Assembly (NCBI RefSeq): GCF_055900595.2
Contig: NZ_JBVWEU010000002.1
From: a plasmid
Direction: 5' to 3' (one strand)
Length of the DNA: 64,000 nt
Below the pieces are notes generated by a model. The model did no database searches. It had not been told where the DNA came from and was given only the letters and a program-made list of their open reading frames with translations. Positions within the stretch are counted from its first letter, which is position 1. Each line of letters opens with the position of its first letter. The translations under genes and the position numbers were made by a program. Positions 22,703 through 48,566 of this stretch are shown here, one piece after another.

Positions 22703-22960
22703 TCAGCCCTGTTTAAAGCCCGGCTTGCCGTTTTTGGCTCGCCATTCCTTCACTTCTTTTACGATACCTTCAGGACTGTCCTCACGGTCATCCCTTGGAT
22801 AATAAATAAGATCAGAACCATCAGGGTGTTCAGCTAATCGACGAAATTCATCCACTAATTTATCATCATCAGCCTCAGTTTCACCTTCAGCCCGGCAGAT
22901 TTTTCTGACGAACTCCAGAAACTCCGCCTCGGTATAGTCAGAAATCGTTTTCTTTTCCAT
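22703..22960 (-). CDS. Nuclease-colicin-type immunity protein (Im family)
   Basis: 85 aa; [12 protein letters not shown] ... [12 protein letters not shown] ... GKPGFKQG closely parallels the DNase-colicin immunity proteins as I recall them; starts one nt after the toxin stop. Confidence 0.75.
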
Positions 22961-23296
22961 TTACTTATTTCCTCTGTGAATTTCAATATGATGCTTGGGT
23001 GTCACTACCCTGAGATTATCGATATCATAAACAGCGCCACCATCCGTAACGCGCTTGATATGGTGCAGTTCGAAACGTTCTCGTTCACCTACACGCTCTG
23101 ATTCAGGAACAAACGAAGATTTACCTTTTGTAACCAGAACCTTATTCTGATTTTTGAACTGCTTCAGTAACTCCGGATCTTTCCCCACTTCCATCCACAA
23201 CGCCTTACGGAACCACGGCAGCCTGGAGGCTGCAAATCGGGGTGTGGCAGAATATGAGCTTTCAGAGTAACCATCCAGAATGAGTTCCCATGTCAC
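22961..23296 (-). CDS. HNH DNase toxin domain (colicin E9/pyocin-type C-terminal nuclease), probably a truncated remnant
   Basis: 111 aa ending ...RERFELHHIKRVTDGGAVYDIDNLRVVTPKHHIEIHRGNK (HNH motif); no translocation or receptor domains upstream. Confidence 0.6.
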   Translation of the reverse strand: MTWELILDGYSESSYSATPRFAASRLPWFRKALWMEVGKDPELLKQFKNQNKVLVTKGKSSFVPESERVGERERFELHHIKRVTDGGAVYDIDNLRVVTPKHHIEIHRGNK

Positions 23297-25687: not shown

Positions 25688-26121
25688 GTAATACCGGTGA
25701 TCTCGAGGCCCGTTTGCAGAAGAACGGGAGTGTTCGTTTCCGTGACCGTCGGACGGGAGAGTTTGTCTGTACGGATTATGGTGACAGGGTTGTTTTCCGT
25801 AATCACCATGACCGCAATGCGCTGGCAGATAAACTGGATTTGATTGCACCTGTATTGTTTGAGCGTGATCCCAGAATGGGCTTTGAACCAGAAGGAAACG
25901 ACAAACAATTTAACCAGGTCTTTGCTGAAATGGTTGCCTGGCATAATGTGACAGGCCGTACCGGTCACGAAGACTACAGGATTACACGACCGGATGTGGA
26001 TCATCACCGGGAAGGAAGTGAACGCTACTACCGCGATTATATCGCGGCGAACAGCAACGATGACGCATCACTGCCTCCGCCGGAGCAGGATAAACGCTGG
26101 GAACCGCCATCTCCCGTATGA
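25688..26121 (+). pseudogene. 3' fragment of an unidentified gene, cut at 5' by the IS629-like end
   Basis: Open frame from the IS boundary to a stop at 26121; no family recognised by eye. Confidence 0.25.
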
Positions 26122-26173: not shown

Positions 26174-26306
26174 TTTGACATCCTCCACGCCCTAAGGACG
26201 TGGGTTCCTGCTTCAACGGGCGGCATCCGTCATCCGCCAATACATTGAATAGCAGCAGACACCTGGTTAGGTGGAAAACAGCGCTTTATATCCCCGTTGA
26301 AGGACG
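26174..26306 (+). repeat. Copy A of a ~134-bp direct repeat bracketing cluster 1
   Basis: Near-identical to 34882-35016 (a few mismatches); begins TTGACATCCTCCACGCCCTAAGGACG and ends with hairpin CCCCGT-TGAAGG-ACGGGG. Confidence 0.8.
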
Positions 26307-26579
26307 GGGGTAAGGGGTATTTGTTAAAAATCAGCACTATCCCTGCCAAATAGGATGATTAATATCACAATATATCGACAATTTTTTTAATATTAAACAA
26401 ATAAACATTTGAAAAAAGTTGTTTATGAATGTCATAGATTGATGTAAATCACATTTTTCATAACAACATTTAGACACCTCAAAAATATTCGCTCCTGTAA
26501 AACAACTTTTTTTTCTGTTGTGGGTCACCTTTATATTGAATACTCGTCACCAGTAAACAATATATACTGGAGATTTGTC

Positions 26580-27248
26580 ATGACGATATCCATTTTTCAG
26601 GCTCAACCCTTTGAATTACCCTTTGATCCGTGCACAACGGCACTGATCATGATAGACATGCAACGTGATTTTGTCGAAGCAGGAGGGTTTGGAGAAGCAT
26701 TGGGTAATGATGTTTCACTGGTTCGCACGGCTATCGCACCATGTAAAGAAGTTCTGGCAGCCGCACGTCAAAAAGGAATTATGGTTATTCATACCCGTGA
26801 AGGCCATCGTGAAGACTTAAGCGACTGCCCATCAGCCAAACTGACGCGCGGCGGAAAAACCTTTATTGGTGAACCAGGACCGATGGGACGCATTCTGGTC
26901 AGGGGTGAAGCAGGTCATGACATCATTCCTGAACTGTATCCGGTGACAGGCGAACCTGTGATTGATAAACCCGGTAAAGGCGCTTTTTATCAAACCGACT
27001 TACATCTGATTTTGCAAAAGCGTGGTATCAAGACACTTATTGTTTGTGGCGTGACTACCGAAGTTTGCGTAACCACCACCGTGCGTGAAGCAAATGACCG
27101 TGGCTATGAATGCATCATACCGGAAGATTGCGTTGGCTCCTATTTCCCGGAATTCCAGAAATACGCCCTTGAGATGATCAAAGCACAAGGTGCCATTTTC
27201 GGTTGGGTTACTGATTCCAAAGCCATTATTGCAGGTCTGGAAGGCTAA
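26580..27248 (+). CDS. Isochorismatase-family cysteine hydrolase (amidase-type)
   Basis: Start taken at ATG 26580 (GGAG about 7 nt upstream); MIDMQRDF (Asp), DKPGKGAF (Lys) and LIVCGVTTEVCV (Cys) match the family catalytic triad pattern. Confidence 0.7.
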   Translation: MTISIFQAQPFELPFDPCTTALIMIDMQRDFVEAGGFGEALGNDVSLVRTAIAPCKEVLAAARQKGIMVIHTREGHREDLSDCPSAKLTRGGKTFIGEPGPMGRILVRGEAGHDIIPELYPVTGEPVIDKPGKGAFYQTDLHLILQKRGIKTLIVCGVTTEVCVTTTVREANDRGYECIIPEDCVGSYFPEFQKYALEMIKAQGAIFGWVTDSKAIIAGLEG

Positions 27249-27253
27249 CGCCG

Positions 27254-28114
27254 ATGGTACAGGTTACGCTTTGTGCATCGTCGTTGGGATATCTTTTCCC
27301 GCAGAATGAAACGCAAGATTTACGTCTACATAGCGCTTTTAAACATGCGGTAAATCTGTATTCAGACGCGGGAACATTCATCACTCTGTTGTGTGCGCAA
27401 ACGTATCTGAATCTCCCTGATGCTGCCAGAGTCTGGCTACCTGAATGTTGGGACTGGCGAAGAGAGATTGCCCATTCAGATCCCATTCAATTAACCCCAG
27501 GCTTACTGCGGACACCTCGATTTTGTGTGGCGCTCGATAACGCAACGCTCTGGCAGTCGCCATTTGTGGGGGGAATGCTGACTCTTGAGGCATTGCCTTT
27601 GGTTTTCCAGCACTACCCCACGATAGCATCGCAACGGCTTTTATTTTGTCTGGAGCATAACGTTCAAAGCACATTGCACCTGCCGGATAGTCTCACGCAC
27701 CAGGGATTAGATATTATGGAACATCCAGATGCGCTGGAACGCCAGGTACCCCAACTGATCGGCTTTGGTAAAGGCTTAACGCCCGATGGAGATGACTATT
27801 TGCTGGGCTATCTGGCAGCCCTCTGGTTATGGCAACTCCCTGCACCACTTGCCAATCATCAATACAGGTTGCAGAAGGCAATTGAACAACATGCACACAA
27901 CACCACGGATATAAGTCGTCATTATCTGCAACGTGCGCTTCAGGGACATTTTTCAGAACCGATTTGCCGGTTACTCGCACAACTGGTTGGGAGCGCATCG
28001 GCAATGACAATCGCATCCTGTACAGAACAGATCATGCAATTTGGCGCAACATCAGGAGTAAATTGCCTTGCAGGAATGCTGCATGGATTTCGAACCCTGA
28101 ACACCATGAATTGA
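27254..28114 (+). CDS. DUF2877-family protein (YlbF/YahE-like)
   Basis: 286 aa; same position relative to the FdrA-like gene as in cluster 2; motif GLTPDGDDYLLGYL shared with the 43104 paralog (GLTPSSDDYLVGL). Confidence 0.55.
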   Translation: MVQVTLCASSLGYLFPQNETQDLRLHSAFKHAVNLYSDAGTFITLLCAQTYLNLPDAARVWLPECWDWRREIAHSDPIQLTPGLLRTPRFCVALDNATLWQSPFVGGMLTLEALPLVFQHYPTIASQRLLFCLEHNVQSTLHLPDSLTHQGLDIMEHPDALERQVPQLIGFGKGLTPDGDDYLLGYLAALWLWQLPAPLANHQYRLQKAIEQHAHNTTDISRHYLQRALQGHFSEPICRLLAQLVGSASAMTIASCTEQIMQFGATSGVNCLAGMLHGFRTLNTMN

Positions 28115-28208
28115 TTTCAACCTTTTCTCCCGTAGCCCGTTTATGGGGCTACACGGGGATGCTTTGCCCGAATTTTGCTATCGGGCGGAATGGAACAGGC
28201 GTAACAGC

Positions 28209-29768
28209 ATGAAAGTTAAATATAAAGTTTTCAGTAATCTTTATCAGGACTCAGTTTCTCTGATGCAGATTTCCGCGCAAATCAGCAAGTTGCCCGGTAT
28301 TCAACAGGCCTCGGTCGTCATGGGAACACCCAATAATCTCGAGCAATTGCGCGATGCGGGTCTGGGTAACGAAATCAACGCCAGTCCCAATGATTTAGTG
28401 ATTGCAGTCATGGGTGAAGAAGATATTTGCAATGAAGCACTGCTACTGGCCCAGCAACGTCTGACCAGCAAACCCGATGATGAAACGGATTGTGGCATTA
28501 AATCACCGGAAAAGGTCAGCCTGGAAATGGCACTGGAAGCTGAACCCGAAGCCAACCTGGCACTCATTTCTGTACCGGGAGACTACGCCGCCGCCGAAGC
28601 AATTAAAGCGTTAAACCTCGGAATGAACGTGATGATGTTCAGCGATAACGTCAGTATCGGGCAGGAAAAATACATCAAAACGCTTGCCCGAGAACGTCAG
28701 CGCATCGTAATGGGACCTGACTGTGGAACCGCCATTGTTAACGGCATTCCGTTAGGCTTCGCTAATGTGGTGAAACGCGGAGCAATTGGTGTTATTGGCG
28801 CGTCAGGCACCGGGCTACAGGAAGTGACTTGCCGAATCGACCAGCTCGGAGCGGGTATTTCTCAGGCGTTGGGAACAGGCGGACATGATCTCAGTGAAGA
28901 GATTGGTGGAATATCAATGCTCTTTGCTTTAGATGCGCTGGCACAAGACGATGAAACTCACGTGATTGTGCTTATTTCAAAACCGCCTTCACCGATCGTT
29001 GCCCGGACTATTCTGGAGCGCGCCGAGGCTTGTGGAAAACCCGTGGTGGTGAATTTCCTCGGGGCGAATCCGCATGATCTGGCACGTCCCAATATCACTG
29101 CCGCCACCACACTTGCCAGCGCCGCCGACATCGCTGTGGCGTTACTGAATGATCAGCCACTTCCGGCTGTCGAGAACGAGGTTTCCTGCGACGATCTCAC
29201 AATGTTACAAAACGCCTGCCAAAGTCTGCCAGTCCATCGCCAGGCGATACGCGGTGTTTTCGCCGGAGGAACCTTCTGTTACGAAGCTCAGCTTATCTGC
29301 CAACAAAAGGGATTCCATGCCGCCTCCAATACGCCAGTTGCGGGTAATCGTGCTCTGGCAAATATCTGGCAAAGTGAAGATCATACACTGATTGATATGG
29401 GGGACGATGATTTCACCCGTGGCAAACCGCATCCAATGATCGACCCGACTCTGCGCAATCAACGTCTGCTCAACGAACTCAACGACTCACATACTGCCGT
29501 TGTGTTATTCGACCTTGTACTTGGTTATGGCACCTCCGCTACGCCTGTCAGCGAATTACTGGACCAACTTTCACACATCGACATGAATAATGCACCGTTG
29601 CTGATTGCCCACGTTTGCGGAACAGAAGCTGATCCGCAAATACGCAGTCAGCAGATAAGCTCACTACAAAATGCAGGCGTCATCATTGCCAACAGCAATG
29701 CACAGGCGGCGCTATGGGCCAGCACCGTTGCACAGACTCAGTTGCAGAAAAAGGAGCTAAATGCATGA
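28209..29768 (+). CDS. FdrA-like protein (acyl-CoA-synthetase/succinyl-CoA-synthetase-alpha fold)
   Basis: Start at ATG 28209 (MKVKYKVFSNLYQDSVSLMQIS...); clear paralog of ORF 43912-45459 (e.g. MGPDCGTAIVNG, GASGTGLQE, TRGKPHPMIDPT). Confidence 0.7.
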   Translation: MKVKYKVFSNLYQDSVSLMQISAQISKLPGIQQASVVMGTPNNLEQLRDAGLGNEINASPNDLVIAVMGEEDICNEALLLAQQRLTSKPDDETDCGIKSPEKVSLEMALEAEPEANLALISVPGDYAAAEAIKALNLGMNVMMFSDNVSIGQEKYIKTLARERQRIVMGPDCGTAIVNGIPLGFANVVKRGAIGVIGASGTGLQEVTCRIDQLGAGISQALGTGGHDLSEEIGGISMLFALDALAQDDETHVIVLISKPPSPIVARTILERAEACGKPVVVNFLGANPHDLARPNITAATTLASAADIAVALLNDQPLPAVENEVSCDDLTMLQNACQSLPVHRQAIRGVFAGGTFCYEAQLICQQKGFHAASNTPVAGNRALANIWQSEDHTLIDMGDDDFTRGKPHPMIDPTLRNQRLLNELNDSHTAVVLFDLVLGYGTSATPVSELLDQLSHIDMNNAPLLIAHVCGTEADPQIRSQQISSLQNAGVIIANSNAQAALWASTVAQTQLQKKELNA

Positions 29769-31189
29769 ATACCTTATTTAATCAGCCTTTGAAGGTCGTG
29801 AACGCGGGGCTACACAGTTTTGCTGACAATATTCAACATGCAGGAGGGCATGCTATATCCCTCAACTGGCAGCCGCCAGCACAAGGTGATATTGACACCG
29901 GTTTGGTTCTGGCGTCATTACTACGCCATCCACTGGTAGAAAGTGCCAACCAAATCGCCATGACACGTTATCTCGAAGCACAGCCCGTGTTGGTGGATGT
30001 CATGCTCGCTAAAGAAGCCATCCCCGAAATGGCTGAACAAAAACGCATTTTACACTCTGGTCCACCGATTGCCTGGGAAGATATGTGTGGTCCGGTAAAA
30101 GGGGCGATTATTGGTGCCATGCTGTACGAAGGCTGGGCTACAAGCCAGAAAGACGCAGAAAACCAGATAAACGCAGGCGAAATCGACCTTGCTCCTTGTC
30201 ATCATTATCACGCGGTTGGACCAATGGCAGGCATTATCAGCCCGTCGATGCCATTATGGGTGGTGGAAAACAAAACCAACGGCCATCGTACTTTTAGCAA
30301 TTTCAATGAGGGTCTGGGTAAGGTTCTCCGTTTTGGTGCCAATAACGATGAAGTTCTCAATCGTCTGGCCTGGATGCGTGATGAACTGGCGCCGGCCATG
30401 AAAGCAGCAATCGCACAACACGGCGAGCTGGAACTCAAGCCATTAATGGCGCAGGCGCTGCATATGGGGGATGAAGTTCATAACCGCAATGCTGCCGCTA
30501 CCGGTTTGCTGATTAAGCGCCTGCTCCCGGCATTGCTGGCCTGCTCTCTTCCACAGGAACATATCCAGCGCGTCGTGGCATTTATCACAGGTAACGATCA
30601 CTTCTTCCTCAATTTGTCGATGGCTGCCTGTAAAGCAATGATGGATGCCGCCGCCAATGTACCGTTCAGTTCAATGGTTACGGTGATGGCGCGTAACGGG
30701 GTGAATTTTGGTATTCGGCTTTCCGGTACTGGCGATCGCTGGTTTCAGGCTCCTGCCAATGCAGTTGAAGGTCTGTTCTTCCCCGGATTTGGCGTTGACG
30801 ACGCCGCTTCTGACCTGGGTGATAGCGCAATTACTGAAACCGCAGGTGTGGGTGGCTTCGCGATGGCGTCATCTCCGGCGATTGTTAAATTTGTGGGAGG
30901 CACCCCTGCCGATGCCACCAATAACAGCCGTCGGATGCAGGCAATCACCCTCGGCGGTAACCCCGCATTTACACTTCCAGCCCTCAATTTTGCCCCCACC
31001 GCAGCAGGTATTGATGCGTGTAAAGTGACCGATCGTGGCATTTTACCGGTCATCAATACGGGTATCGCCCACAAACAAGCGGGAGTCGGACAAATTGGTG
31101 CCGGGATCACCACTGCACCGATGGCCTGTTTTGTCGCTGCTGTACGTGAACTGGCGGAGATCGTCGCAAAGGAGAACCATCATGGTTAA
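29765..31189 (+). CDS. DUF1116-family protein (YlbE/YahG-like)
   Basis: Start ATG overlaps the upstream stop; paralog of 45459-46877 (LFNQPL..VN.G, HSGPPI.WE.MCG, GDSAITET.GVGGFAMA). Confidence 0.65.
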   Translation: MNTLFNQPLKVVNAGLHSFADNIQHAGGHAISLNWQPPAQGDIDTGLVLASLLRHPLVESANQIAMTRYLEAQPVLVDVMLAKEAIPEMAEQKRILHSGPPIAWEDMCGPVKGAIIGAMLYEGWATSQKDAENQINAGEIDLAPCHHYHAVGPMAGIISPSMPLWVVENKTNGHRTFSNFNEGLGKVLRFGANNDEVLNRLAWMRDELAPAMKAAIAQHGELELKPLMAQALHMGDEVHNRNAAATGLLIKRLLPALLACSLPQEHIQRVVAFITGNDHFFLNLSMAACKAMMDAAANVPFSSMVTVMARNGVNFGIRLSGTGDRWFQAPANAVEGLFFPGFGVDDAASDLGDSAITETAGVGGFAMASSPAIVKFVGGTPADATNNSRRMQAITLGGNPAFTLPALNFAPTAAGIDACKVTDRGILPVINTGIAHKQAGVGQIGAGITTAPMACFVAAVRELAEIVAKENHHG

Positions 31190-32138
31190 GCCACTGGCTG
31201 TCGTCGCGGTTGGCGGCAATGCGCTCATTCAGGACGATAAACGCAATAGTATTCCCGATCAATATGTTGCAGTAATGGAAAGCGTGCAGCATATCGTTGA
31301 TATGGTTGAAGCCGGATGGGAGCTGGTGCTAACCCATGGTAATGGCCCGCAGGTAGGCTTTATTCTGCGCCGCTCTGAACTTGCCAGTAACGAAGTTTCT
31401 CCGGTTCCTCTGGATTACGCCGTGGGTGATACCCAAGGCGCCATTGGATACATGTTCCAGAAAGCGCTGCATAACGAATTGGCTCGCCGTGGCATAAACA
31501 AACCGGTAATTGCCCTGGTGACACAAACGCGAGTCAGCCCATATGACGATGCTTTCGCCAGCCCCAGTAAACCGATTGGCGCGTTTCTTGATGAAGAAAC
31601 AGCACAACAACGCCAACAACAACTCGGCTGGACGCTGATGGAGGACGCCGGGCGTGGTTGGCGGCGTACAGTTCCCTCTCCTGCGCCACTGGAAATTATT
31701 GAGCACCACACCATCGCTCACCTTGTGCGCCAGGGATATCTGGTTATAGCCTGCGGCGGCGGCGGTATACCTGTGGTGCGAGACGGGCAACAACTGAAAG
31801 GTGTGGAAGCCGTGATCGATAAAGACCTGGCCTCCGCATTGCTCGCCAGTCAGTTAGGCGCTGATCTGCTGGTGATCCCCACCGGTGTAGAAAAAGTGGC
31901 GATTCACTTTGGTACACCACAACAACAATGGCTCGACGCTATCAGCGTCTACGAAGCTCAAACGCTGTTGCAGGAAGGTCAGTTTGGTGTCGGCAGTATG
32001 CAACCCAAAGTGGAAGCCATTATTGATTTCATCAATGCCAGCCAGCAACAAGGCAAACAGGCCAGCGGACTGATTACTTCACCGCAAACCATAAAAGCAG
32101 CCCTGGCACATCAGAGCGGAACATGGATAACCCTTTAA
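31182..32138 (+). CDS. Carbamate kinase
   Basis: Start at ATG 31182 (overlaps upstream gene by 8 nt); AVGGNAL ... THGNGPQVG ... ACGGGGIPVV motifs. Confidence 0.8.
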   Translation: MVKPLAVVAVGGNALIQDDKRNSIPDQYVAVMESVQHIVDMVEAGWELVLTHGNGPQVGFILRRSELASNEVSPVPLDYAVGDTQGAIGYMFQKALHNELARRGINKPVIALVTQTRVSPYDDAFASPSKPIGAFLDEETAQQRQQQLGWTLMEDAGRGWRRTVPSPAPLEIIEHHTIAHLVRQGYLVIACGGGGIPVVRDGQQLKGVEAVIDKDLASALLASQLGADLLVIPTGVEKVAIHFGTPQQQWLDAISVYEAQTLLQEGQFGVGSMQPKVEAIIDFINASQQQGKQASGLITSPQTIKAALAHQSGTWITL

Positions 32139-32154
32139 TTCTCTGGAGAACACA

Positions 32155-32544
32155 ATGACTACAACACTTTTAGCCGTTAACGGAACGCTGATGCGCGGTC
32201 TGGAACTCAACCCAAATATGCAAAAAGCTGGCGGTATTTTTGTCCGTGAAGACCGAACTGACGCCCATTACCGGTTATGGAGTATTAATGATCGTCATCC
32301 CGGAATGATCCGCGTGAATGAAGGAGGAGCACACGTAGACGTAGAAATCTGGCAACTGCCTCTGGCCAGTTTTGCCGAACTGTTAATGAACGAACCCGAA
32401 GGCCTGACCATTGGAAAAATCAAACTTGCCGATGGTAGCGAAGTACTGGGCGTACTGGCAGAAAGCTGGCTGACTGAAGGCCAGAAGGAGATTACAGCAC
32501 TGGGGGGCTGGCGCAAATACACCGGGAATTTTCACACGATGTAA
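32155..32544 (+). CDS. Small gamma-glutamyl-cyclotransferase-like (AIG2/allophanate-hydrolase C-domain-like) protein
   Basis: 129 aa; weak by-eye resemblance only. Confidence 0.4.
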   Translation: MTTTLLAVNGTLMRGLELNPNMQKAGGIFVREDRTDAHYRLWSINDRHPGMIRVNEGGAHVDVEIWQLPLASFAELLMNEPEGLTIGKIKLADGSEVLGVLAESWLTEGQKEITALGGWRKYTGNFHTM

Positions 32545-32569
32545 CGCGCATTTATAAAGGAAACATATT

Positions 32570-33790
32570 ATGCGTAAAGAAGATAATATGAATACGGCAT
32601 CAGGATTGCGTATTACCATGATTTTGCTGGGTATTGCCGTCACACCTGTGCTGTTGTCATCCTCAAGCCTCGGCAATCAACTTTCCAGTGGTAGTTTAAT
32701 TAGCGTCGTACTATTAGGCGGCGTCATTCTGACCTTACTTTCAGCCATCACCATTAGTGTGGGAGAAAAAGCCCGCCTGCCAACATACGGTATTGTGAAA
32801 TATTCATTTGGCGAAAAAGGGGCCATCGCCATTAATATTTTGATGGCTATAAGTCTGTTCGGCTGGATTGCCGTTACCGCTAATATGTTTGGTCATTCGG
32901 TGCATGACTTACTGGCGCAGAATGGGATTGAAGCGCCACTGGCACTGTTAGTGGCAGCTGGTTGTGTCATTTTTGTCGCCTCTACGGCCTTTGGTTTTTC
33001 CATTCTGGGCAAAGTTGCCCAGGTCGCCGTGCCGGTTATCGCACTGGTGCTGTGTTATATACTCTATGTGGCAACCCATACCGAAGTATCAGCGCCAGCA
33101 GCGATAGCGGAGATGAGTACAGGTGTCGCCGTTTCCACCGTTGTTGGCACTATTATTGTGCTGGTTGCTACACTTCCCGACTTCGGTAGTTTTGTACATA
33201 ACCGAAAACATGCTCTGATTGCCGCAGGTATGACGTTTCTGGTTGCCTACCCTCTGCTATACTGGGCGGGTGCAACGCCGAGTGCCATTAGCGGCCAGGG
33301 CTCTTTACTGAATGCTATGGCAGTATTCGGTGCGGTTATGCCTGCAGCACTGTTGCTGATATTCGCCTGCGTCACCGGTAATGCGGGCAATATGTTCCAG
33401 GGGACGTTGGTAGTTTCCACACTGCTTAGCCGCTTTCCCAAATGGCAGATTACCGTTGCGCTGGGTATCCTTTCCGCCATCGTAGGCAGTATGGATATTA
33501 TGGCGTGGTTTATTCCGTTTCTGCTGTTCCTGGGTATCGCGACTCCCCCAGTTGCCGGAATTTATATCGCTGACTTTTTCCTTTATCGCCGTAATGGCTA
33601 TCAAGAGTCGGTGTTAACTCAGGAGTCACAGGTTAAAGTACTGACATTCGCTGCATGGATCACAGGCACAGCGGTTGGCTTTATGACCGTAAAAGGCTTA
33701 TTCACCCTGACGACGATCCCTTCAGTTGACTCCATTCTGGTGGCATGTATCGCGTATGCGATTCTCAGTCGGGCAAGTCAACACCGCTAA
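32570..33790 (+). CDS. NCS1-family permease (cytosine/purine/hydantoin-type)
   Basis: 406 aa, about 12 hydrophobic segments; resemblance to CodB-type permeases. Confidence 0.6.
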   Translation: MRKEDNMNTASGLRITMILLGIAVTPVLLSSSSLGNQLSSGSLISVVLLGGVILTLLSAITISVGEKARLPTYGIVKYSFGEKGAIAINILMAISLFGWIAVTANMFGHSVHDLLAQNGIEAPLALLVAAGCVIFVASTAFGFSILGKVAQVAVPVIALVLCYILYVATHTEVSAPAAIAEMSTGVAVSTVVGTIIVLVATLPDFGSFVHNRKHALIAAGMTFLVAYPLLYWAGATPSAISGQGSLLNAMAVFGAVMPAALLLIFACVTGNAGNMFQGTLVVSTLLSRFPKWQITVALGILSAIVGSMDIMAWFIPFLLFLGIATPPVAGIYIADFFLYRRNGYQESVLTQESQVKVLTFAAWITGTAVGFMTVKGLFTLTTIPSVDSILVACIAYAILSRASQHR

Positions 33791-33867
33791 TTCCTGGGTA
33801 TACTCAGGCAATGATTACGGCTGAATCTGGAGAGATTCAGCCACTTTACCACTGACCAGGGAGCCTT

Positions 33868-34758
33868 ATGTTCATCTCAGACGAAACGATTCGAATTATT
33901 CATCTGGTCGCCAGACACCAGAACATCACCACCGCAGCCGAACAGTTAAATAAAGTCCCTTCTACTATCAGTTACACCCTGAAGAAAGCGGAAGAAACCC
34001 TGGGCGTTGAACTGTTCATTCGTAAGGGACGATATATTGAATTATCTCCGGCGGGGAGTTACTTCATCGAACATAGCAAAAATATTCTCCGCGATCTGGA
34101 TGCATTAAAGCGCAACACAGTGCTGATTCACGATGGTATTGAGCGTGAACTGACAATTGCGGTGAACAATATTATACCTGGTGATTTTCTGGTGTCATTT
34201 ATTCAAGATTTTGAACGGCAATTCACATCAACAACACTGACGGTAGATATTGAAGTATACAACGGCTGCTGGGATGCGCTGTACAGTAAACGTGCTGATC
34301 TGGTCTACGGTGCTCCTCATGCAGTACCAAGCAGTGAAGGCATCATTAGCGAACCGGTCGGACAAATAGAATGGGATTTTGTCGTCAGCCCACTTCATCC
34401 ACTGGCAGTGAAGCGGAATCCATTAGAAAATAGTGAATTGCGTCATTATCCTGCGGTTTGTATCCGGGATACCTCCGTTAACTTCCCCCCAATGCAAGCC
34501 TGGTTGTTGGAAGGACAAAAACCTATTTTTGTTCCTGACTTCGCCATGGCAATCAGCTTAATAGAACAAAACGTCGGTATTGGTTATATTCCACATCATC
34601 TGGCATTGCCGTTATTGAACAGAGGTAAATTGCTTAAAAAGCCAATGCGCGAACATAAACACGCCACCAAGTTATTTCTTGCCGCTCGTTCCGATGGTAT
34701 AGGAAAAGCCTGTCTGTGGTGCATGTCGTATTTAAGAAATAAGCAATTCATGGCGTAA
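33868..34758 (+). CDS. LysR-family transcriptional regulator
   Basis: 296 aa; N-terminal HTH (TAAEQLNKVPSTISYTLKKAEETLGVELFIRKGR). Confidence 0.75.
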   Translation: MFISDETIRIIHLVARHQNITTAAEQLNKVPSTISYTLKKAEETLGVELFIRKGRYIELSPAGSYFIEHSKNILRDLDALKRNTVLIHDGIERELTIAVNNIIPGDFLVSFIQDFERQFTSTTLTVDIEVYNGCWDALYSKRADLVYGAPHAVPSSEGIISEPVGQIEWDFVVSPLHPLAVKRNPLENSELRHYPAVCIRDTSVNFPPMQAWLLEGQKPIFVPDFAMAISLIEQNVGIGYIPHHLALPLLNRGKLLKKPMREHKHATKLFLAARSDGIGKACLWCMSYLRNKQFMA

Positions 34759-34881
34759 TACCATCAATACAGTGATATTGCCAGGCTCTTCCAGGGTTAT
34801 ACTGAATGCAATGATCCGAAAGGATGATGAATGGATTGATTCATACCACAAGTTTTCATTTTGACATCCTCCACGCCCTAA

Positions 34882-35016
34882 GGACGAGGGGTCCTGCTTC
34901 AACGGGCGGCATCCGTCATCCGCCAATACATTGAATAGCAGCAGACACCTGGTTAGGTGGAAAACAGCGCCTTATATCCCCGCTGAAGGACGGGGTTTTA
35001 CGGTGCACGGATAAAA
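34882..35016 (+). repeat. Copy B of the ~134-bp direct repeat bracketing cluster 1
   Basis: Near-identical to 26174-26306; ends CCCCG-CTGAAGG-ACGGGG followed by TTTTA (terminator-like). Confidence 0.8.
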
Positions 35017-35191
35017 GGAGCATGAATGATGGAGTATGTAGAAGTATCGGAGAAAATTTGATATTCTTCTTGATAAAATGAGATTTTCTGCACATATAAG
35101 CATACAGGAGATTCATAGTACAAAAATAAAAAATCATAATAATAAACTTAAATTGACATAACTATAATCAACTTTGAACAGGAATATATTA

Positions 35192-35581
35192 ATGATAAAA
35201 CAAAAGGTATTTTTCTCAGGTACTGTACTAGCTATTTTTTTATCTCTCAGCAACGTATCTTTGGCTTCCGGCCTGGATAAAAACATGCAGTCTCTTGCCA
35301 AAAGTATGAGTATTCTACAATCTTCCAATGATAAATCATCACTATTAAATGCTCTTGAAATGATGGATAAATCTGTAGATTCTTCTATGAATATTATTCC
35401 TGAAAAGATAGATGTTAATGATAAAGTTTCTGTAGATAATTATAAGGAAGAGTTAAAAAAACTACAACATGAAATCAATATTGCAAAAAAGAAAGTTGAG
35501 GACGGGAATATAGAATCATTACGTGAGTCTCTGGATAAAATGAACGATATAAAACTTGAAGGTCACCGAAAATTCAGATGA
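35192..35581 (+). CDS. Secreted cytochrome b562-family protein
   Basis: ATG 35192 then signal peptide MIKQKVFFSGTVLAIFLSLSNVSLA; mature N-terminus ...DKNMQSL and C-terminus ...LEGHRKFR parallel the Met/His heme-ligand positions of cytochrome b562 as I recall it; AT-rich. Confidence 0.5.
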   Translation: MIKQKVFFSGTVLAIFLSLSNVSLASGLDKNMQSLAKSMSILQSSNDKSSLLNALEMMDKSVDSSMNIIPEKIDVNDKVSVDNYKEELKKLQHEINIAKKKVEDGNIESLRESLDKMNDIKLEGHRKFR

Positions 35582-35832
35582 TCTACAAAAATAAATTTTA
35601 ATATTTAAATACGGCAATATATTTTATCATGTATTGCCGTCTTGGCGTATTCTTTCCGTTCCATTCAATTGCATCTGGCATAACAAGAGAAATAGTAGAC
35701 TCCTCATTACTGCTGTTGTATAACTGCGCACCATAATCTGCTAGACTGGCCCCCTGAATCTCCAGACAACCAATATCACTTAAATAAGTGATAGTCTTAA
35801 TACTAGTTTTTAGACTAGTCATTGGAGAGCAG

Positions 35833-36198
35833 ATGATTGATGTCTTAGGACCGGAGAAACGCAGACGGCGTACTACACAGGAAAAGATCGCTATTGTTCA
35901 GCAGAGTTTTGAACCGGGAATGACGGTCTCCCTTGTAGCCCGGCAACACGGTGTGGCAGCCAGCCAGCTATTTCTCTGGCGCAAGCAATACCAGGAGGGA
36001 AGTCTTACTGCTGTGGCCGCAGGAGAGCAGGTCGTTCCTGCCTCTGAACTTGCTGCTGCCATGAAGCAGATTAAAGAACTCCAGCGCCTGCTCGGCAAAA
36101 AAACGATGGAAAATGAACTCCTTAAAGAAGCCGTTGAATATGGGCGTGCAAAAAAGTGGATAGCGCACGCGCCCTTATTGCCCGGGGATGGGGAGTAA
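35833..36198 (+). CDS. insC: IS2 transposase OrfA
   Basis: [56 protein letters not shown]... matches IS2 InsC as I recall it. Confidence 0.85.
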
Positions 36199-36821
36199 GC
36201 TTAGTCAGCCGTTGTCTCCGGGTGTCGCGTGCGCAGTTGCACGTCATTCTCAGACGAACCGATGACTGGAAAGATGGTCGCCGCAGCCGTCACTCCGATA
36301 ATACGGATGTGCTTCTCCGTATACACCATGTTATCGGAGAGCTGCCCACGTATGGTTATCGTCGGGTATGGGCGCTGCTTCGCAGACAGGCCGAACTTGA
36401 TGGTATGCCTGCGATCAATGCCAAACGTGTTTACCGGATCATGCGCCAGAATGCGCTGTTGCTTGAGCGAAAAACCGCTGTACCGCCATCGAAGCGGGCA
36501 CATACTGGCAAAGTGGCCGTGAAAGAAAGCAATCAACGATGGTGCTCTGACGGGTTCGAGTTCCGCTGTGATAACGGAGAAAAACTGCGAGTCACGTTCG
36601 CGCTGGACTGCTGTGACCGTGAGGCACTGTACTGGGCGGTCACTACGGGCGGCTTCGACAGTGAAACAGTACAGGACGTCATGCCAGGAGCGGTGGAACG
36701 CCGCTTCGGCAACGAGCTTCCGGCGTCTCCAGTAGAGTGGCTGACGGATAATGGTTCATGCTACCGGGCTAATGAAACACGGCAGTTTGCCCGGATGTTG
36801 GGGCTTGAACCGAAGAACACA
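36156..36821 (+). pseudogene. insD: IS2 transposase OrfB, 3'-truncated
   Basis: First about 222 aa match IS2 InsD; the ORF then reads through into unrelated ABC-ATPase sequence. Confidence 0.8.
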
Positions 36822-37292
36822 GAGTTGAGTGCGTCTATCCTGGAGAACGTTGCTGTTGTGCCTCAAAAAGCCGTTCTGGTGCAGGGAACTATTCGTGATA
36901 ATATTCTGTATGGAACCGATGACATTCTTCCCGATGATGAACTGTTTTGCATCCTGAATTCATTAGGGTTAATTAAAGAGGACTGCGGAGAACATTTCCT
37001 TGCTTTCCTAGACCGGGATATTAATCCTCTGGGTAGTGGTTTGAGTGGTGGAGAGATCCAGCGATTATGCATAGCCCGCGCCCTAGCCCGTAAGAAAAAG
37101 ATTATCGTACTTGATGAACCCACGGCCTCTATTGGCGAAGAACTCGCGATAAAGATCATTACCTATATCCGGCAGCATTGCCCTACCGTTATTATTACAA
37201 CTCATAATCCACGAATTCTGGAGCTCGCCGATCATTTTTTTGATGGTATGTCAAAGTCTTGCGTCATTGCTGGAGAAGGCAGAGACCAATAA
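36822..37292 (+). pseudogene. C-terminal fragment of an ABC-transporter ATP-binding domain
   Basis: ...[11 protein letters not shown] ... [15 protein letters not shown] ... [12 protein letters not shown] ... VIITTHNP; no Walker A or upstream portion. Confidence 0.55.
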
Positions 37293-41095: not shown

Positions 41096-42025
41096 TCACG
41101 CTCGATGCATCAAATCCTGATAAATCCCCGTCAGTATTCCTTGTAAGCTAAATTCTCTTTTTATCCACTGAGTGACTTGACCGCTTGCCGAATGCCTGGT
41201 TGCCAACAGCATTCGTGAATCCTGACGTGGGTTGTGGATCTGCCGTGTCACCAGCAATGACTTTTCCATCGCTTCACGCACCATATAGTCTGGCAGAAAA
41301 CCGATTCCCTCCCCCAAGATCTGGCACTGAAGCTTAGTATTAAAGTCGGGAACCAGAATCGACTCTTGCCCGTGTAACAGCCAGCCGACTTTTTTGTTTA
41401 TAGTGTTTGCAGTGTCTTCCACCATGATGTTCGGGTACAGACGTAACTGACTCTCAGAAATGGGCTCAGGAATAAACGCCAGCGGATGAGCCGGAGAAAT
41501 CGCGAACAACCAACGAATCATGCCGATTTCAATGTAATCAATTCCACCACCGTCCAGTAACGTATCGGGCGCGCCAATGGCGATATCAGCCTGGTTATTA
41601 ATGAGTGAATCCCAGACGCCATTATACACCTCTGTAGTAATAGCTATCTGGCAGGTTGGAAAGTGTTCCCTGAGCACTTGCAGAAGCCGAGCTGTATGCT
41701 GAGGGGTATACAACAGTTGATTAATACAAATGCGCACCCGGGATTTAATTCCCTGAGCGATGGCATCAACTCTACGTATGATGGAGTGGTAATCGTTGAG
41801 CAGGTCAGTTGCTTTGCAAAAAAGGTAGTGCCCGGGCTCGGTCAGCTCAATGCTACGGGTAGTTCGGGTAAAAAGCACCACGTCAAGCCCCATTTCCATA
41901 CGCTTGATAGTGTAACTAATTGCCGATGTGGTTAAGCCCAGTTCCTTCGCCGCCTTGCTGAAACTTCTATAGCGGGCAGCCATAGTAAATGCCAGTAAGT
42001 TTTCTTCCGTAAATATTGAATTCAT
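41096..42025 (-). CDS. LysR-family transcriptional regulator, divergent from cluster 2
   Basis: Start taken at internal ATG 42025 (MNSIFTEENLLAFTMAARYRSFSKAAKELGLTTSAISYTIKRME...); HTH plus LysR substrate-binding domain. Confidence 0.75.
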   Translation of the reverse strand: MNSIFTEENLLAFTMAARYRSFSKAAKELGLTTSAISYTIKRMEMGLDVVLFTRTTRSIELTEPGHYLFCKATDLLNDYHSIIRRVDAIAQGIKSRVRICINQLLYTPQHTARLLQVLREHFPTCQIAITTEVYNGVWDSLINNQADIAIGAPDTLLDGGGIDYIEIGMIRWLFAISPAHPLAFIPEPISESQLRLYPNIMVEDTANTINKKVGWLLHGQESILVPDFNTKLQCQILGEGIGFLPDYMVREAMEKSLLVTRQIHNPRQDSRMLLATRHSASGQVTQWIKREFSLQGILTGIYQDLMHRA

Positions 42026-42412
42026 CTTTCTTTCCTCTGGCGACAATACACATACACAACATGATGATTGTTGAATGTATTTGTAATTCTTATAACCGAC
42101 AATCAGTTTTGAAAAAACTAACACCGTATTTACATTTAATTTGAAGGAAATCACACATCTGAATTTTAATTACAGGCAGCTATCCGTGCTGCAGACCACC
42201 TTTATTTATATGACTGCGGATTAATGGCTAAAATATCCCCAGCTATAATAGAAATATTGCACTATATCACACTCTCTTATTATTGTTAATTTTGTTTCAA
42301 TAATTCATGGTCTAATGATGAGTAAATTTTAAATGGATGGTGCTCTATGCATTCTGTTGCTATTCTTGGCTTGTTATATTTGTAAAATCTTAAAAAGAGC
42401 AGGAGATCGATT
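42026..42412. promoter_or_regulatory. Divergent control region between the LysR gene and the cluster 2 operon
   Basis: 387-bp AT-rich intergenic region between divergently oriented genes; inferred from arrangement only. Confidence 0.35.
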
Positions 42413-43018
42413 ATGTCCAATAAAGAACTCATTACAGAATTTCTGCTGGCGGCAGAACAAGGTAATTCCGATGGATTAAAATCATGCCTTGATAAAAAGG
42501 TTGATATTAATGCGACTAACCGCGAGGGGCGTACTGCAATTATTATTGCCAGTCTGAATAAACATTATGACTGCGTTTCTTTATTGATTTCCGCAGGTGC
42601 TGATATTAATAAACAAGATCAAACTTGTTTTAATCCCTTCCTGATTGGCTGCCTGAATAATGATTTAACACTGTTGCGTACGGTATTACCGGCTAACCCC
42701 GACCTTAATTGCCTAACCCGTTTTGGCGGTGTTGGTATTACACCTGCCTGCGAAAAAGGCCATGTCGAGATTGTACGTGAATTGCTGATGCGTACTGATA
42801 TCAATGTCAACCATACTAATTTTGTTGGCTGGACGCCGCTCCTAGAGGCCATCGTGCTGAATGACGGCGGTGAAAAGCAGCAGGAGATCGTCAAACTGTT
42901 GCTTGAGCATGGCGCAAACCCGCACATGACGGATAAATACGGTAAAACCCCGCTGGAGCTGGCGCGAGAAAAAGGCTACCACAAAATTGCCGAGTTGCTG
43001 ATTTCGGCTGGAGCCTGA
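42413..43018 (+). CDS. Ankyrin-repeat protein (YahD-like)
   Basis: 201 aa; repeated ...G.TAL..A...GH...V..LL..GAD.N.. units. Confidence 0.75.
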   Translation: MSNKELITEFLLAAEQGNSDGLKSCLDKKVDINATNREGRTAIIIASLNKHYDCVSLLISAGADINKQDQTCFNPFLIGCLNNDLTLLRTVLPANPDLNCLTRFGGVGITPACEKGHVEIVRELLMRTDINVNHTNFVGWTPLLEAIVLNDGGEKQQEIVKLLLEHGANPHMTDKYGKTPLELAREKGYHKIAELLISAGA

Positions 43019-43103
43019 CAACAGGAGCACGATTATCGCTATATTATCACGGCAATCTTTTCGGGCACTAACCGCAGACTGCGCGTTTCTCACTTTTCGG
43101 GGA

Positions 43104-43952
43104 ATGGGCCAGGTTGAACAGGTTTTTTCCCATGCGGTAAATCTGTTAATACCTGAACAGCAGCGACTGCTGACGTTACTGAGTGAGGATTGTGATAACG
43201 CACCTAACAGTTGTCGTTTAGCACTGACACATTATGAAGACCTTTTTCACCCCGGTGAACAGGTCAATTTTAGCGGGTCTGGAATAACTGTTGGAAATGA
43301 TAAATGGATAGAAATAACCGGTTGTCAGATGTGGCGAATACCACGGTGGACATCTGATTCAGCAAGCCTTGCCAAAGTCGGCTGGCAGCATTGGGAAGAG
43401 TTTATCCGCCAACAACTAAGAAGCAACGACACATTATTTCTGTACCAGGGTGACAATCCATTTTATCAGGAAATTTCTCGCCAATTACTCAACCGCCGAA
43501 AAAATTTGCTGAAGGCGTTGTGTACAGGAGAAAACATCACTGCGGCAGTCAACCAGTTAATTGGTCTTGGAATAGGGCTGACGCCATCATCGGATGATTA
43601 TTTAGTAGGTTTAAGCACTATTTTATTTATTCAAGGACATCCACTAAGGAAGTATAGATACGATTTCTTAGCAGCATTACAACTTGCAGGAAATAACATA
43701 ACGCTTCTCAGCAAAATAACGTTAGAGGAAGCATTTAATCAGCGTTATCGGGAAAGAGTCGGACGGCTACTGAACCAATTTATTACTGAGCCACAACCCA
43801 TTTCTACGCAATATGTTACTGACATAAAAAATATAGGCTCAAGTTCTGGATGCGACATGCTGTATGGCATGGCGGATGCCTGCGCCCTGAGCCACAGGTC
43901 CGGAGGTAATTATGTCAATCAGGATAGTTGTAAAAAAAAACACGTATTTTGA
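43104..43952 (+). CDS. DUF2877-family protein (YahE/YlbF-like)
   Basis: 282 aa; paralog of 27254-28114. Confidence 0.55.
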   Translation: MGQVEQVFSHAVNLLIPEQQRLLTLLSEDCDNAPNSCRLALTHYEDLFHPGEQVNFSGSGITVGNDKWIEITGCQMWRIPRWTSDSASLAKVGWQHWEEFIRQQLRSNDTLFLYQGDNPFYQEISRQLLNRRKNLLKALCTGENITAAVNQLIGLGIGLTPSSDDYLVGLSTILFIQGHPLRKYRYDFLAALQLAGNNITLLSKITLEEAFNQRYRERVGRLLNQFITEPQPISTQYVTDIKNIGSSSGCDMLYGMADACALSHRSGGNYVNQDSCKKKHVF

Positions 43953-45459
43953 TTCTGTTTCACTGATGTCTATCTCCACGCGCGCAAATAAGCTTGATGG
44001 AGTTGAGCAGGCATTTGTTGCTATGGCGACAGAGATGAATAAGGGGGTGCTGAAGAATCTCGGTCTGCTGACCCCTGAGCTGGAAGAGGCGAAAAGTGGC
44101 GATCTGATGATTGTCATTAAAGGTACCAGCGAGGAGGCGAACGAGCGGACGCTAATAGCGATTGATGAGCTGTTTGCGCATAAAGAACAGGGAGGCCAGC
44201 ACGAAGCACGCTATGCCACGATTGCCAGTGCGAAGAAGCATGCTCCAGAGAGTAATCTGGCGGTGATCTCTGTCAATGGCCTGTTTGCTGCTCGTGAAGC
44301 TCGTCAGGCACTACAAAATAACCTCAATGTTATGCTGTTTTCTGACAACGTCTCTCTTGAGGACGAGCTGGAACTCAAGCATCTGGCACATGAAAAAGGG
44401 TTGTTGATGATGGGGCCTGATTGTGGAACCGCCATCATTAACGGCGCAGCGTTGTGTTTTGGCAATGCAGTGCGTCGCGGCAACATCGGAATCATTGGTG
44501 CCTCCGGTACGGGTAGCCAGGAGCTGAGCGTACGCATTCACGAATTTGGCGGCGGGATTTCCCAGCTGATTGGGACAGGTGGACGCGATATGAGTGAAAA
44601 AATTGGCGGCCTGATGATGCTTGACGCGATTAGCATGCTGGAGGCCGATCCACAAACTGAGATCATTACGCTTATATCCAAACCTCCTGCACCAGCGGTA
44701 GCCCGTAAGGTGCTGGAACGTGCGCGCACCTGTCACAAGCCTGTGGTGGTGTGTTTCCTCGGACGTGAGTCCACCCCTGCGGATGAAGAAGGCCTACAGT
44801 TTGCCCGCGGTACTAAAGAGGCTGCCTTGAAAGCGGTACTGTTGACTGGTGTGAAAAAAGAGAGTCTGGATTTGCATCCGCTCAACTGGCAGCTGATTGA
44901 AGAGGTTCGCTCCCGTCTGACTCCACAACAAAAGTATATCCGTGGCCTGTTCTGTGGTGGCACGTTATGCGATGAAGCGATGTTTACTGCCATGGAAAAA
45001 CTCTCGGATGTGTATAGCAATATTCACCCGAATCCGGCGTTCCGCCTTACAGATCTCAACCGTAGCGTGGCGCATACCTTCCTCGATTTCGGCGATGATT
45101 ATTTTACCAACGGCAAACCACATCCGATGATCGATCCCACCAATCGCATTACCCGGCTCTTGCAGGAAGCACAGGATCCTGAAGTTGGCGTGATCGTGAT
45201 GGACTTCATTCTTGGATTTGGATCACATGAAGATCCGGTTGGAGTGATGCTGGATACAATTGTTGAAGCCAAAGAAATTGCTGCCGCAGACGGTCGCCCG
45301 CTTGAGATCCTCGGCTATGTGCTGGGAACCGACCTTGATACACCGTCGCTGAAAAAACAGTGTCAGATGTTGACCGATGCCGGGGTTATTTGGGCAAGCA
45401 GTAGCACCAACACCGGATTACTGGCACGTGAATTTATATTTAAAGGGGAGGAAGGCTGA
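43912..45459 (+). CDS. FdrA-like protein (YahF-like)
   Basis: 515 aa; paralog of 28209-29768. Confidence 0.7.
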   Translation: MSIRIVVKKNTYFDSVSLMSISTRANKLDGVEQAFVAMATEMNKGVLKNLGLLTPELEEAKSGDLMIVIKGTSEEANERTLIAIDELFAHKEQGGQHEARYATIASAKKHAPESNLAVISVNGLFAAREARQALQNNLNVMLFSDNVSLEDELELKHLAHEKGLLMMGPDCGTAIINGAALCFGNAVRRGNIGIIGASGTGSQELSVRIHEFGGGISQLIGTGGRDMSEKIGGLMMLDAISMLEADPQTEIITLISKPPAPAVARKVLERARTCHKPVVVCFLGRESTPADEEGLQFARGTKEAALKAVLLTGVKKESLDLHPLNWQLIEEVRSRLTPQQKYIRGLFCGGTLCDEAMFTAMEKLSDVYSNIHPNPAFRLTDLNRSVAHTFLDFGDDYFTNGKPHPMIDPTNRITRLLQEAQDPEVGVIVMDFILGFGSHEDPVGVMLDTIVEAKEIAAADGRPLEILGYVLGTDLDTPSLKKQCQMLTDAGVIWASSSTNTGLLAREFIFKGEEG

Positions 45460-46877
45460 TGAGCCAGACACTGTTTAATCAGCCGCTGAACGTTATTAAT
45501 GTCGGTATCGAAATGTTCAGCGATGACATGAAAAAGCAGAATGTACCGGTAACCCAACTTGACTGGACACCGCCAGGCCAAGGAAACATACAAGTGGTAA
45601 CGGCACTGGACGACATTGCCGCTTCACCACTGGCAGACAAAATTGCAGCTGCTAATCAGCTGGCGCTGGAACGCATTATCCAGTCGCATCCTGTGCTAAT
45701 TGGCTATGATCAGGCGATCAACGTCGTGCCGGGTATGACCCGTAACACTATCCTTCACGCCGGGCCGCCAATCCACTGGGAAAAAATGTGCGGCGCAATG
45801 AAGGGCGCAGTAACCGGGGCTCTGGTATTTGAAGGACTGGCGAAAGATCTGGATGATGCCGCCGAACTAGCTGCTTCAGGTGAAATCATCTTCTCTCCGT
45901 GCCACGAACATGACTGTGTCGGCTCAATGGCGGGTGTCACGTCTGCATCGATGTTTATGCACATCGTCGAGAACAAAACCTATGGAAACCGCGCATATAC
46001 CAATATGAGCGAGCAGATGGCAAAGATCCTGCGTATGGGCGCTAACGACCAGAGCGTTATAGAGCGTCTTAACTGGATGCGAGATGTACTGGGACCTATG
46101 TTGCGCGATGCTATGAAGCTGGCGGGCGAAATCGATCTGCACTTGATGTTAGCGCAGGCGCTGCATATGGGCGATGAGTGCCATAACCGCAACAACGCCG
46201 GGACGGCGCTGCTGATTCAGACGCTGACGCCGTGGATTATTCAGACTGGCTACCCTGTTGAGCAGCAGCGTGAGGTGTTCGAGTTTGTCCTCAGTAGTGA
46301 TTACTTCTCAGGACCAACATGGATGGCAATGTGTAAAGCCGCAATGGACGCTGCGCACGGCATTGAATACAGCACCGTGGTGACAACGATGGCACGCAAT
46401 GGTGTTGAGTTCGGTCTTCGTATTAGCGGTTTGCCGGGCCAGTGGTTTACCGGTCCGGCGCAGCAGGTGATTGGGCCGATGTTTGCGGGCTATAAGCTAG
46501 AGGATTCCGGACGTGATATCGGTGATAGTGCAATTACCGAAACCTACGGCGTTGGCGGTTTCGCTATGGCGACGGCACCAGCTATTGTGTCACTGGTGGG
46601 CGGAACAGTTGAGGAAGCTATTGATTTCTCACGTAAAATGAGAGAAATCACTCTCGGAGAAAACCCCAACGTCACCATTCCCCTGCTTGGTTTTATGGGC
46701 GTACCGACCGCTATCGATATTACACGTGTAGGCAGTACAGGCATTCTGCCGGTAATTAACACAGCCATTGCGCACAAAGACGCAGGGATCGGCATGATCG
46801 GCGCAGGAATTGTTCACCCGCCGTTCACTTGTTTTGAAAAGGCGATCCTCAACTGGCGTGACCACTACTGCCAATAA
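45459..46877 (+). CDS. DUF1116-family protein (YahG/YlbE-like)
   Basis: 472 aa; start overlaps upstream stop; paralog of 29765-31189. Confidence 0.65.
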   Translation: MSQTLFNQPLNVINVGIEMFSDDMKKQNVPVTQLDWTPPGQGNIQVVTALDDIAASPLADKIAAANQLALERIIQSHPVLIGYDQAINVVPGMTRNTILHAGPPIHWEKMCGAMKGAVTGALVFEGLAKDLDDAAELAASGEIIFSPCHEHDCVGSMAGVTSASMFMHIVENKTYGNRAYTNMSEQMAKILRMGANDQSVIERLNWMRDVLGPMLRDAMKLAGEIDLHLMLAQALHMGDECHNRNNAGTALLIQTLTPWIIQTGYPVEQQREVFEFVLSSDYFSGPTWMAMCKAAMDAAHGIEYSTVVTTMARNGVEFGLRISGLPGQWFTGPAQQVIGPMFAGYKLEDSGRDIGDSAITETYGVGGFAMATAPAIVSLVGGTVEEAIDFSRKMREITLGENPNVTIPLLGFMGVPTAIDITRVGSTGILPVINTAIAHKDAGIGMIGAGIVHPPFTCFEKAILNWRDHYCQ

Positions 46878-46989
46878 CAATAACCGGGGCTAACGCAGTT
46901 AGCCCCACAGTAGCGGAAAACGTTGTTTACCTTCAGGGCTGGGCGATCTCCATGATCGCAAACGATGCTTAACCTGTTAAGGAGATTCC

Positions 46990-48540: not shown

Positions 48541-48566
48541 ATAGCCTGCAAACGGAAGATAATTCT

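Follow-up and report, generated by a model that had tools for sequence, protein, structure and literature searches.

Few proteins are used as often as cytochrome b562 as a model or fusion partner (BRIL) and, to our knowledge, no physiological function is established even for the canonical cytochrome. Two described systems place a member of the family next to an exported catalase-peroxidase. In Y. pestis, katY, cybC and cybB form a single transcript (PMC2231364), and in Y. pseudotuberculosis H2O2 induces cybB and cybC by 6.7-7.5 log2-fold and katG as well (bioRxiv 10.64898/2026.03.04.709318). In addition, the Yersinia operon encodes a membrane cytochrome b561 (cybB), through which a connection to the quinone pool is possible. 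On pO157, the L7018 gene is annotated as encoding a 'putative cytochrome b562 family protein'. O157:H7 produces the protein, at a 6.3-fold higher abundance in vivo, in infected piglets (PMC3686733). In the pO157-type plasmid inspected, the gene of its equivalent, WP_001172748.1, starts 46 nt past katP.

The gene considered here is carried by a stretch of plasmid DNA of 64,000 nucleotides (hereafter the window). The ORF list gives a coding sequence at 35192-35581 (+ strand, stop codon counted in), from ATG 35192 to TGA 35579-35581, for a precursor of 129 amino acids. An AGGA Shine-Dalgarno motif (35180-35183) is found 8 nt 5' of the ATG. A longer version starting at TTG 35174 was rejected and the ATG taken as the start, because this TTG is not conserved in the divergent allele described below as the 77% allele. 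RefSeq already annotates the identical protein, WP_000595317.1, as "cytochrome b562" in pAPEC-O2-211A-ColV and dozens more plasmids; its recognition here is a rediscovery and the gene is not new. Our literature search found no paper discussing the ColV copy itself. What the present analysis adds is solely the position of its closest relatives, whose genes stand directly behind the periplasmic catalase-peroxidase gene katP.

The original prediction had located this gene on a virulence plasmid, in an AT-rich islet between the repeat of a metabolic gene cluster (cluster 1) and an IS2 element, and its description of the locus was accurate. The window opens with RepFIB, int, mig-14, hlyF, ompT and etsABC and represents a ColV-type virulence plasmid, of which positions 15321-39630 are 99.9% identical to pAPEC-O2-211A-ColV. 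Over the 560 bp from 35084 to 35643, the GC content is 28.2%, versus a window mean of 49.2%, and falls within the bottom 0.25% for segments of this size. GC3 is 0.26 in the b562 gene, and the two genes upstream have values of 0.43-0.50. Self-BLAST reveals a 136-bp direct repeat, whose right copy flanks the segment on its left side (34860-34995, no strand assigned); the left copy, at 26174-26309, is 97% identical, and the pair brackets the eight genes of cluster 1 (allH/allF/allG/carbamate-kinase-like). To the right, IS2 extends from its left inverted repeat inwards (35742-36820, +), as read from the sequence and by comparison with the complete IS2 of a chromosomal locus (L015). It is cut off at ~36820, where it is fused to an ABC-ATPase gene fragment. 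The nearest gene 5' of the b562 gene, 434 nt off, encodes a LysR regulator. A functional membership of the b562 gene in the allH/allF/allG/carbamate-kinase cluster was considered and rejected, because the gene lies outside the repeat bracket, differs in base composition and occurs without the cluster in the 77% allele.

The assignment to the b562 family had been made from a signal peptide and from Met and His residues near the two termini, and this call from the letters of the DNA proved sound. The N-terminus of the precursor contains K3 and K5, then a 14-residue hydrophobic core (VFFSGTVLAIFLSL), then SLA/SG. These n-, h- and c-regions line up with the signal peptide of E. coli CybC, and in the family alignment SLA/SG coincides with the known CybC cleavage site (SFA/ADLEDNM). 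Residues 1-25 (MIKQKVFFSGTVLAIFLSLSNVSLA; 35192-35266, +) are thus predicted by alignment to form a Sec-type signal peptide, with cleavage after Ala25 to give a 104-residue mature protein. In the predicted structure of the precursor, pLDDT is <50 across residues 5-24, as expected of a signal peptide.

Sequence profiles lead to the same family. Pfam PF07361 (Cytochrom_B562) is matched with 55.8 bits, for a gathering cut-off of 30, and the match is end to end (residues 28-129 on profile positions 2-102 of 102). The best NCBIfam match is the cytochrome b562 model (NF011632 / PRK15058, 2.3e-18), and the PDB sequence matches, which are weak (best E = 0.0011), are all cytochrome b562. In an alignment of the ColV protein with 24 relatives, E. 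coli CybC among them (A1), only three columns are invariant over the 25 sequences, namely Met32, Pro70 and His125. Met32 (mature Met7, codon at 35285-35287, +) is aligned with CybC Met7, and His125 (mature His100, codon at 35564-35566, +) with CybC His102; these two residues are the predicted axial haem ligands. At most of the positions that contact the haem in the 256B structure, the residue is kept (L3, L10, M33, P45 and R106) or conservatively replaced (F61 by Y and Y105 by F). The ColV protein has no cysteine and no CXXCH haem-attachment motif, and it has no Pfam match to the cytochrome c' / c556 class. A Class II c-type four-helix cytochrome (c', c556) was ruled out on these grounds; because the protein is without cysteine, its haem would be bound non-covalently.

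The AlphaFold2 model, computed with the family alignment, has a pLDDT of 84.8 and helices at residues 27-44, 48-66, 78-103 and 107-128, so that the mature protein is predicted to be an up-down-up-down four-helix bundle. When the model is compared with the PDB using Foldseek, the best 50 matches are all b562, engineered variants or BRIL fusions (TMt 0.90-0.91, rmsd 1.3-1.5 Å). The profile search and the structure prediction that had been proposed as checks both support a b562-type reading of the ORF at 35192-35581, for which haem binding is predicted from the ligand columns and the model.

The ColV protein and CybC (256B) have in common the PF07361 domain, the length class, a Sec-type signal peptide (predicted for the ColV protein), the Met/His ligand positions and the lack of cysteines, and the predicted ColV bundle superposes on 256b with a TM of 0.91 and an rmsd of 1.3 Å over 104 columns. 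However, the two proteins are only 19% identical, and the score of the ColV protein against the NCBIfam CybC equivalog, 66.7 bits, is below the cut-off of 130. The ColV protein also shows a two-residue deletion in the loop between helices 2 and 3 and, in the pocket, the replacements Y101 to G and F65 to L. Finally, its gene is very AT-rich and is carried by mobile DNA instead of occupying the cybC locus of the chromosome. By these comparisons, the ColV protein belongs to a divergent b562 subfamily and is not a CybC orthologue or equivalog.

A HMMER search of 1.84 billion representatives gave 31 matches at E<=1e-3. Outside the protein's own cluster, the closest full-length relative (P0057) is 45% identical and the rest are 25-33% identical. 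Using tblastn, a ~45% homologue was found in ~494 plasmid records, typically of the pO157 type. L7018, likewise among the closest full-length relatives outside the ColV clade, is 42.6% identical to the ColV protein by alignment and 45% by tblastn; as with the ColV gene, its gene resides on a plasmid of pathogenic E. coli and is AT-rich relative to its neighbours, and the ligands are the same. In a simple neighbour-joining tree of the mature regions (50 bootstraps), the ColV clade is sister to L7018 plus P0057 with 100% support. Identity to these two proteins is 43-45%, versus 19-31% to other family members.

The genes of these relatives follow peroxidase genes. That of P0057 is located 38 nt downstream of the gene of a 737-aa PF00141 peroxidase, and those of the more distant P0073 and P0083 are 28 and 53 nt downstream of genes of 730-738-aa PF00141 peroxidases. 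The peroxidases encoded upstream of the b562 relatives carry an N-terminal signal peptide in four cases out of four and are 73-100% identical to KatP. Mutual identity is 29-53% among the b562 partners and 73-87% among the KatP proteins themselves; the small cytochrome thus evolves much faster than the enzyme. Nine genomic contexts of b562 genes were sampled, with a bias towards relatives of the ColV query, and every katP-type gene examined has a b562 gene 28-53 nt downstream.

By contrast with L7018, the ColV gene has no katP near it. No KatP-like sequence is detected in the 64-kb window by tblastn with KatP, and no katP remnant is detected upstream of the b562 gene by tblastx; the gene is called an orphan for this reason. 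Together with the tree, this identifies it, at the level of sequence, as an orphan that branched off from the b562 lineage linked to katP. Other differences from L7018 concern the intergenic DNA and the protein. A GC-rich hairpin stands between katP and the L7018 gene, whereas the ColV gene has an upstream region and a hairpin of its own. Proteomic evidence exists for L7018 (PMC3686733) and none was found for the ColV protein. The likeness to the Yersinia system, which serves as the functional model for this clade, comes from the published operon structure and induction, and the ColV gene is accompanied neither by cybB nor by a katY/katP homologue.

A scan with the clade alignment over one genome per species identified no donor species for the AT-rich b562 DNA. 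It returned only short katP-b562 contigs (L018, L019 and L020). These three contigs of 3.4-3.9 kb, binned into Lachnospiraceae MAGs, encode KatP proteins 97-99% identical to pO157 KatP, and by this identity they are probably mis-binned E. coli plasmid DNA.

Taken together, the available data make it likely that the product of the ColV gene is a b-type cytochrome, small, soluble and periplasmic, which would carry single electrons or haem in connection with peroxide defence and whose gene would have become separated from a former katP pair. The katP-b562 pairs, the Yersinia operon and the co-induction by H2O2 all point to periplasmic peroxide defence and, by analogy with the gene neighbourhood in relatives, the carrier role is probably linked to it. 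It can be proposed that the protein is exported by the Sec pathway and that, in the periplasm, the 104-residue four-helix bundle would ligate one haem b through Met7 (helix 1) and His100 (helix 4), acting as a diffusible one-electron carrier or as a haem holder. An origin in a katP-b562 pair, parallel to the H2O2-induced katY-cybC-cybB of Yersinia, would account for the connection with peroxide defence. The orphan gene travels within a 560-bp module on ColV plasmids, in a chromosomal fragment flanked by IS1 and IS2 and, as the 77% allele, in an integrase island. Most likely, its product would serve haem peroxidases in the periplasm of the host cell, or other periplasmic acceptors, as a source of reducing equivalents or of haem. 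Against this reading stand the absence of the katP partner from the window, the lack of a convincing promoter, OxyR site or Fur box, the existence of frameshifted alleles and the NCBIfam score below the equivalog cut-off.

The regulatory signals were searched in the region upstream of the gene (35084-35191, +), which is shared by the alleles and includes, besides the AGGA motif, possible promoter elements. A candidate promoter, TTCATA-17-CATAAT, is found at 35112-35140. The TTGACA (35153-35158) and TATAAT (35163-35168) hexamers were rejected as a promoter, their spacing of 4 nt being too short. A sigma-70 promoter scan gave 4 matches versus 5.3 expected by chance, and none is established. The OxyR tetranucleotide-repeat motif has zero matches at <=3 mismatches in the whole window.

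Since the ligand and fold evidence would fit equally well, one may ask whether the protein holds or delivers haem b in the periplasm as a haem-binding or buffering protein and is not an electron carrier, a reading that is the foremost alternative but that we consider rather unlikely. In a first version, it would be the haem donor of exported KatP-type enzymes, which must acquire their haem after Sec export; the place of b562 genes right after those of Sec-exported haem enzymes suits delivery as well as redox chemistry. In a second version, it would take up or pass on haem derived from the host, the virulence plasmid being rich in iron-acquisition functions. In iron-starved Y. pestis, CybC is up 4.7-fold and KatY is down, and CybC is listed as Fur-linked together with hmuT and hmuS, which lends slight weight to this idea; it should, however, be noted that the CybC spot ran at an apparent 5 kDa and is possibly a fragment (PMC2835676). 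The window does contain an iron/siderophore-type ABC transporter and an MFS gene (~18585-22625), but no haem-uptake genes are adjacent to the b562 gene, and the best Fur-box match upstream of it, 13/19, is equalled in 16% of shuffles, i.e. it is at chance level. Moreover, haem that is bis-ligated by Met and His, as in b562, is tightly bound, which is untypical of a transfer protein.

The mobility of the gene was examined through its alleles. The locus is present in about 84-86 of the 72,556 PLSDB plasmids. Among 5426 complete genomes of E. coli, 152 contain the module (128 plasmid and 47 chromosomal places). Among the module copies listed, all are annotated as intact CDS. Three allele classes are distinguished: the ColV allele, the 77% allele, whose identity to it is 77% at the nucleotide and 71% at the protein level, and a mosaic (L003). 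The 77% allele is found in a chromosomal integrase island adjoining xthA-ydjXYZ-ynjA, with an IS5 fragment and ssb, perC and proQ-like genes as flanks. The mosaic (8001-8387 of L003) resembles the ColV allele over its 5' ~120 nt (92-97% identity) and the chromosomal 77% allele over its 3' ~270 nt (98-100% identity), a pattern that indicates homologous recombination between b562 alleles. At the upstream junction of L003, an apparent 175-bp deletion coincides with an 'NN' scaffold gap. The chromosome of strain AR13438 carries the same segment as positions 34791-36820 of the window, with an IS1 cutting its left side and with a complete IS2.

Comparison of these contexts bounds the shared DNA between ~35084-35095 and 35640-35643, the left edge of homology being at ~35095 with the 77% allele (L004/L016) and at 35083 with L003. 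At its 3' end, the conserved segment contains a terminator-like hairpin (35611-35640, +) with a 12-bp stem (ACGGCAAUAUAU/AUGUAUUGCCGU). Its centroid energy is -14.9 kcal/mol (z = -3.5), and one shuffle in 200 was as good. The hairpin is kept in the 77% allele through a compensatory swap of T:A to A:T; the T-tract after it is weak. An Rfam scan of 34500-36000 (E<=1) found no RNA family, neither the repeat nor the module giving a match. As delimited by these homology edges, the upstream region, the gene and the hairpin are a self-contained 560-bp module occurring in at least three genomic contexts. With its GC content of 28%, the module could be subject to H-NS silencing.

These features also bear on the view that the gene is a hitch-hiking relic, an intact but irrelevant passenger, probably silenced by H-NS, left after IS activity broke a katP-b562 unit and persisting only through the clonal youth of the surrounding ColV region. 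The mosaic surroundings made of IS2, IS1 and truncated genes, the extreme AT-richness and the absence of a partner gene, a clear promoter and an OxyR site are all consistent with such a history. Furthermore, identity is >=99% in 138 of the 171 module records, so conservation within ColV plasmids says little. Frameshifted alleles are known, two being broken in the signal peptide (P0031 and P0036) and one lacking the His ligand (P0042), and the gene is therefore dispensable in some lineages. Nevertheless, between the mature parts of the ColV and 77% alleles dN is 0.14 for a dS of 0.60, and the resulting dN/dS of 0.24 argues that the protein is under purifying selection; both ligands are kept in the divergent alleles. 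The upstream region and the hairpin accompany the gene in three unrelated contexts, including the compensatory change in the stem, and allele recombination in L003 left the reading frame intact. In addition, the recurrence of orphan b562 genes on conjugative elements suggests a stand-alone utility. All this makes the relic view a distinctly unlikely one.

Further orphan genes of the b562 family were indeed observed on mobile elements (L021 4001-4384, L012 5001-5390 and L024 4001-4381). Their contexts are the leading region of an F-like plasmid, from SLT to psiA/psiB, a position beside TraU/TraG_N and a place among IS elements.

That the protein is a four-helix protein without cytochrome function, for instance a plasmid establishment or anti-defence factor, is very improbable: the homologue between SLT and psiA/psiB in an F-like leading region, the relative beside ssb, perC and proQ-like genes and the fast evolution (the partners share 29-53% identity, and the KatP proteins that they accompany 73-87%) would be compatible with it, but the Met and His ligands are invariant in the whole alignment, ColV clade included, the predicted signal peptide would place the protein in the periplasm, remote from defence at the level of DNA, and the ColV protein has no PADLOC match and no meaningful PHROG match.

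If the reading as a periplasmic cytochrome linked to peroxide defence is retained, the katP-b562 association offers a testable lead on the physiological role of cytochrome b562, and the ColV orphan provides a natural stand-alone version for genetic study in ExPEC/APEC. A broader proposal, which we regard as rather doubtful, is that the b562 family is a dedicated periplasmic partner of exported catalase-peroxidases, as electron donor or haem supplier, of which the mobile orphans would be portable versions. If this were true, the copies on ColV plasmids, in an F-like leading region and on an element with tra genes would strengthen, in trans, the periplasmic defence of their recipients against peroxide or haem, and they would contribute to the survival of ExPEC/APEC in the face of the host oxidative burst.

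Some observations were made on the DNA around b562 genes. The spacers between katP and b562 genes (L006 5919-5964, L002 7963-8000, L009 4948-5000 and L008 4973-5000) contain a perfect GC-rich hairpin in three cases out of four, e.g. GAGGGAGGGCACCTCCCTC. Possible roles of this hairpin are attenuation, or the processing or stabilisation of the mRNA, by which the enzyme:cytochrome ratio would be set. In the ColV plasmid, two GC-rich hairpins (GCCCTAAGGACGAGGGG and CCCCGCTGAAGGACGGGG) are found in either copy of the 136-bp repeat, and its left copy comes after a relaxase-like ORF fragment (25714-26121). The repeat may serve as a site of recombination or mark the border of an inserted unit. As an empty site with a single repeat, H55 was uninformative, since it carries the left copy plus cluster 1.

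Cluster 1, of the AllH type (26580-34758), has a paralogue in the same window, cluster 2 (~41100-49530, approximate coordinates transferred from the reference plasmid). Both encode DUF2877/AllH, FdrA/AllF, DUF1116/AllG, a carbamate kinase and their own LysR regulator. Cluster 1 has a cysteine hydrolase and a cytosine/purine permease in addition, and cluster 2 an ankyrin-repeat protein. Catabolic genes of the oxamate/oxalurate type are present here in duplicate on a virulence plasmid. On the other side of the b562 gene, orfB of IS2 runs into the 3' part of the ABC-transporter ATPase gene to form a chimeric ORF (36156-37292, 378 aa), of which RefSeq annotates only the ATPase part. Lastly, remnants of a small Col-type plasmid are found at 22703-23296 and 25714-26121, with cluster 1 on one side and the genes of the iron-type ABC transporter on the other; they comprise a bacteriocin immunity gene, a C-terminal fragment of an HNH-nuclease colicin and the mobilisation/relaxase-like ORF fragment.
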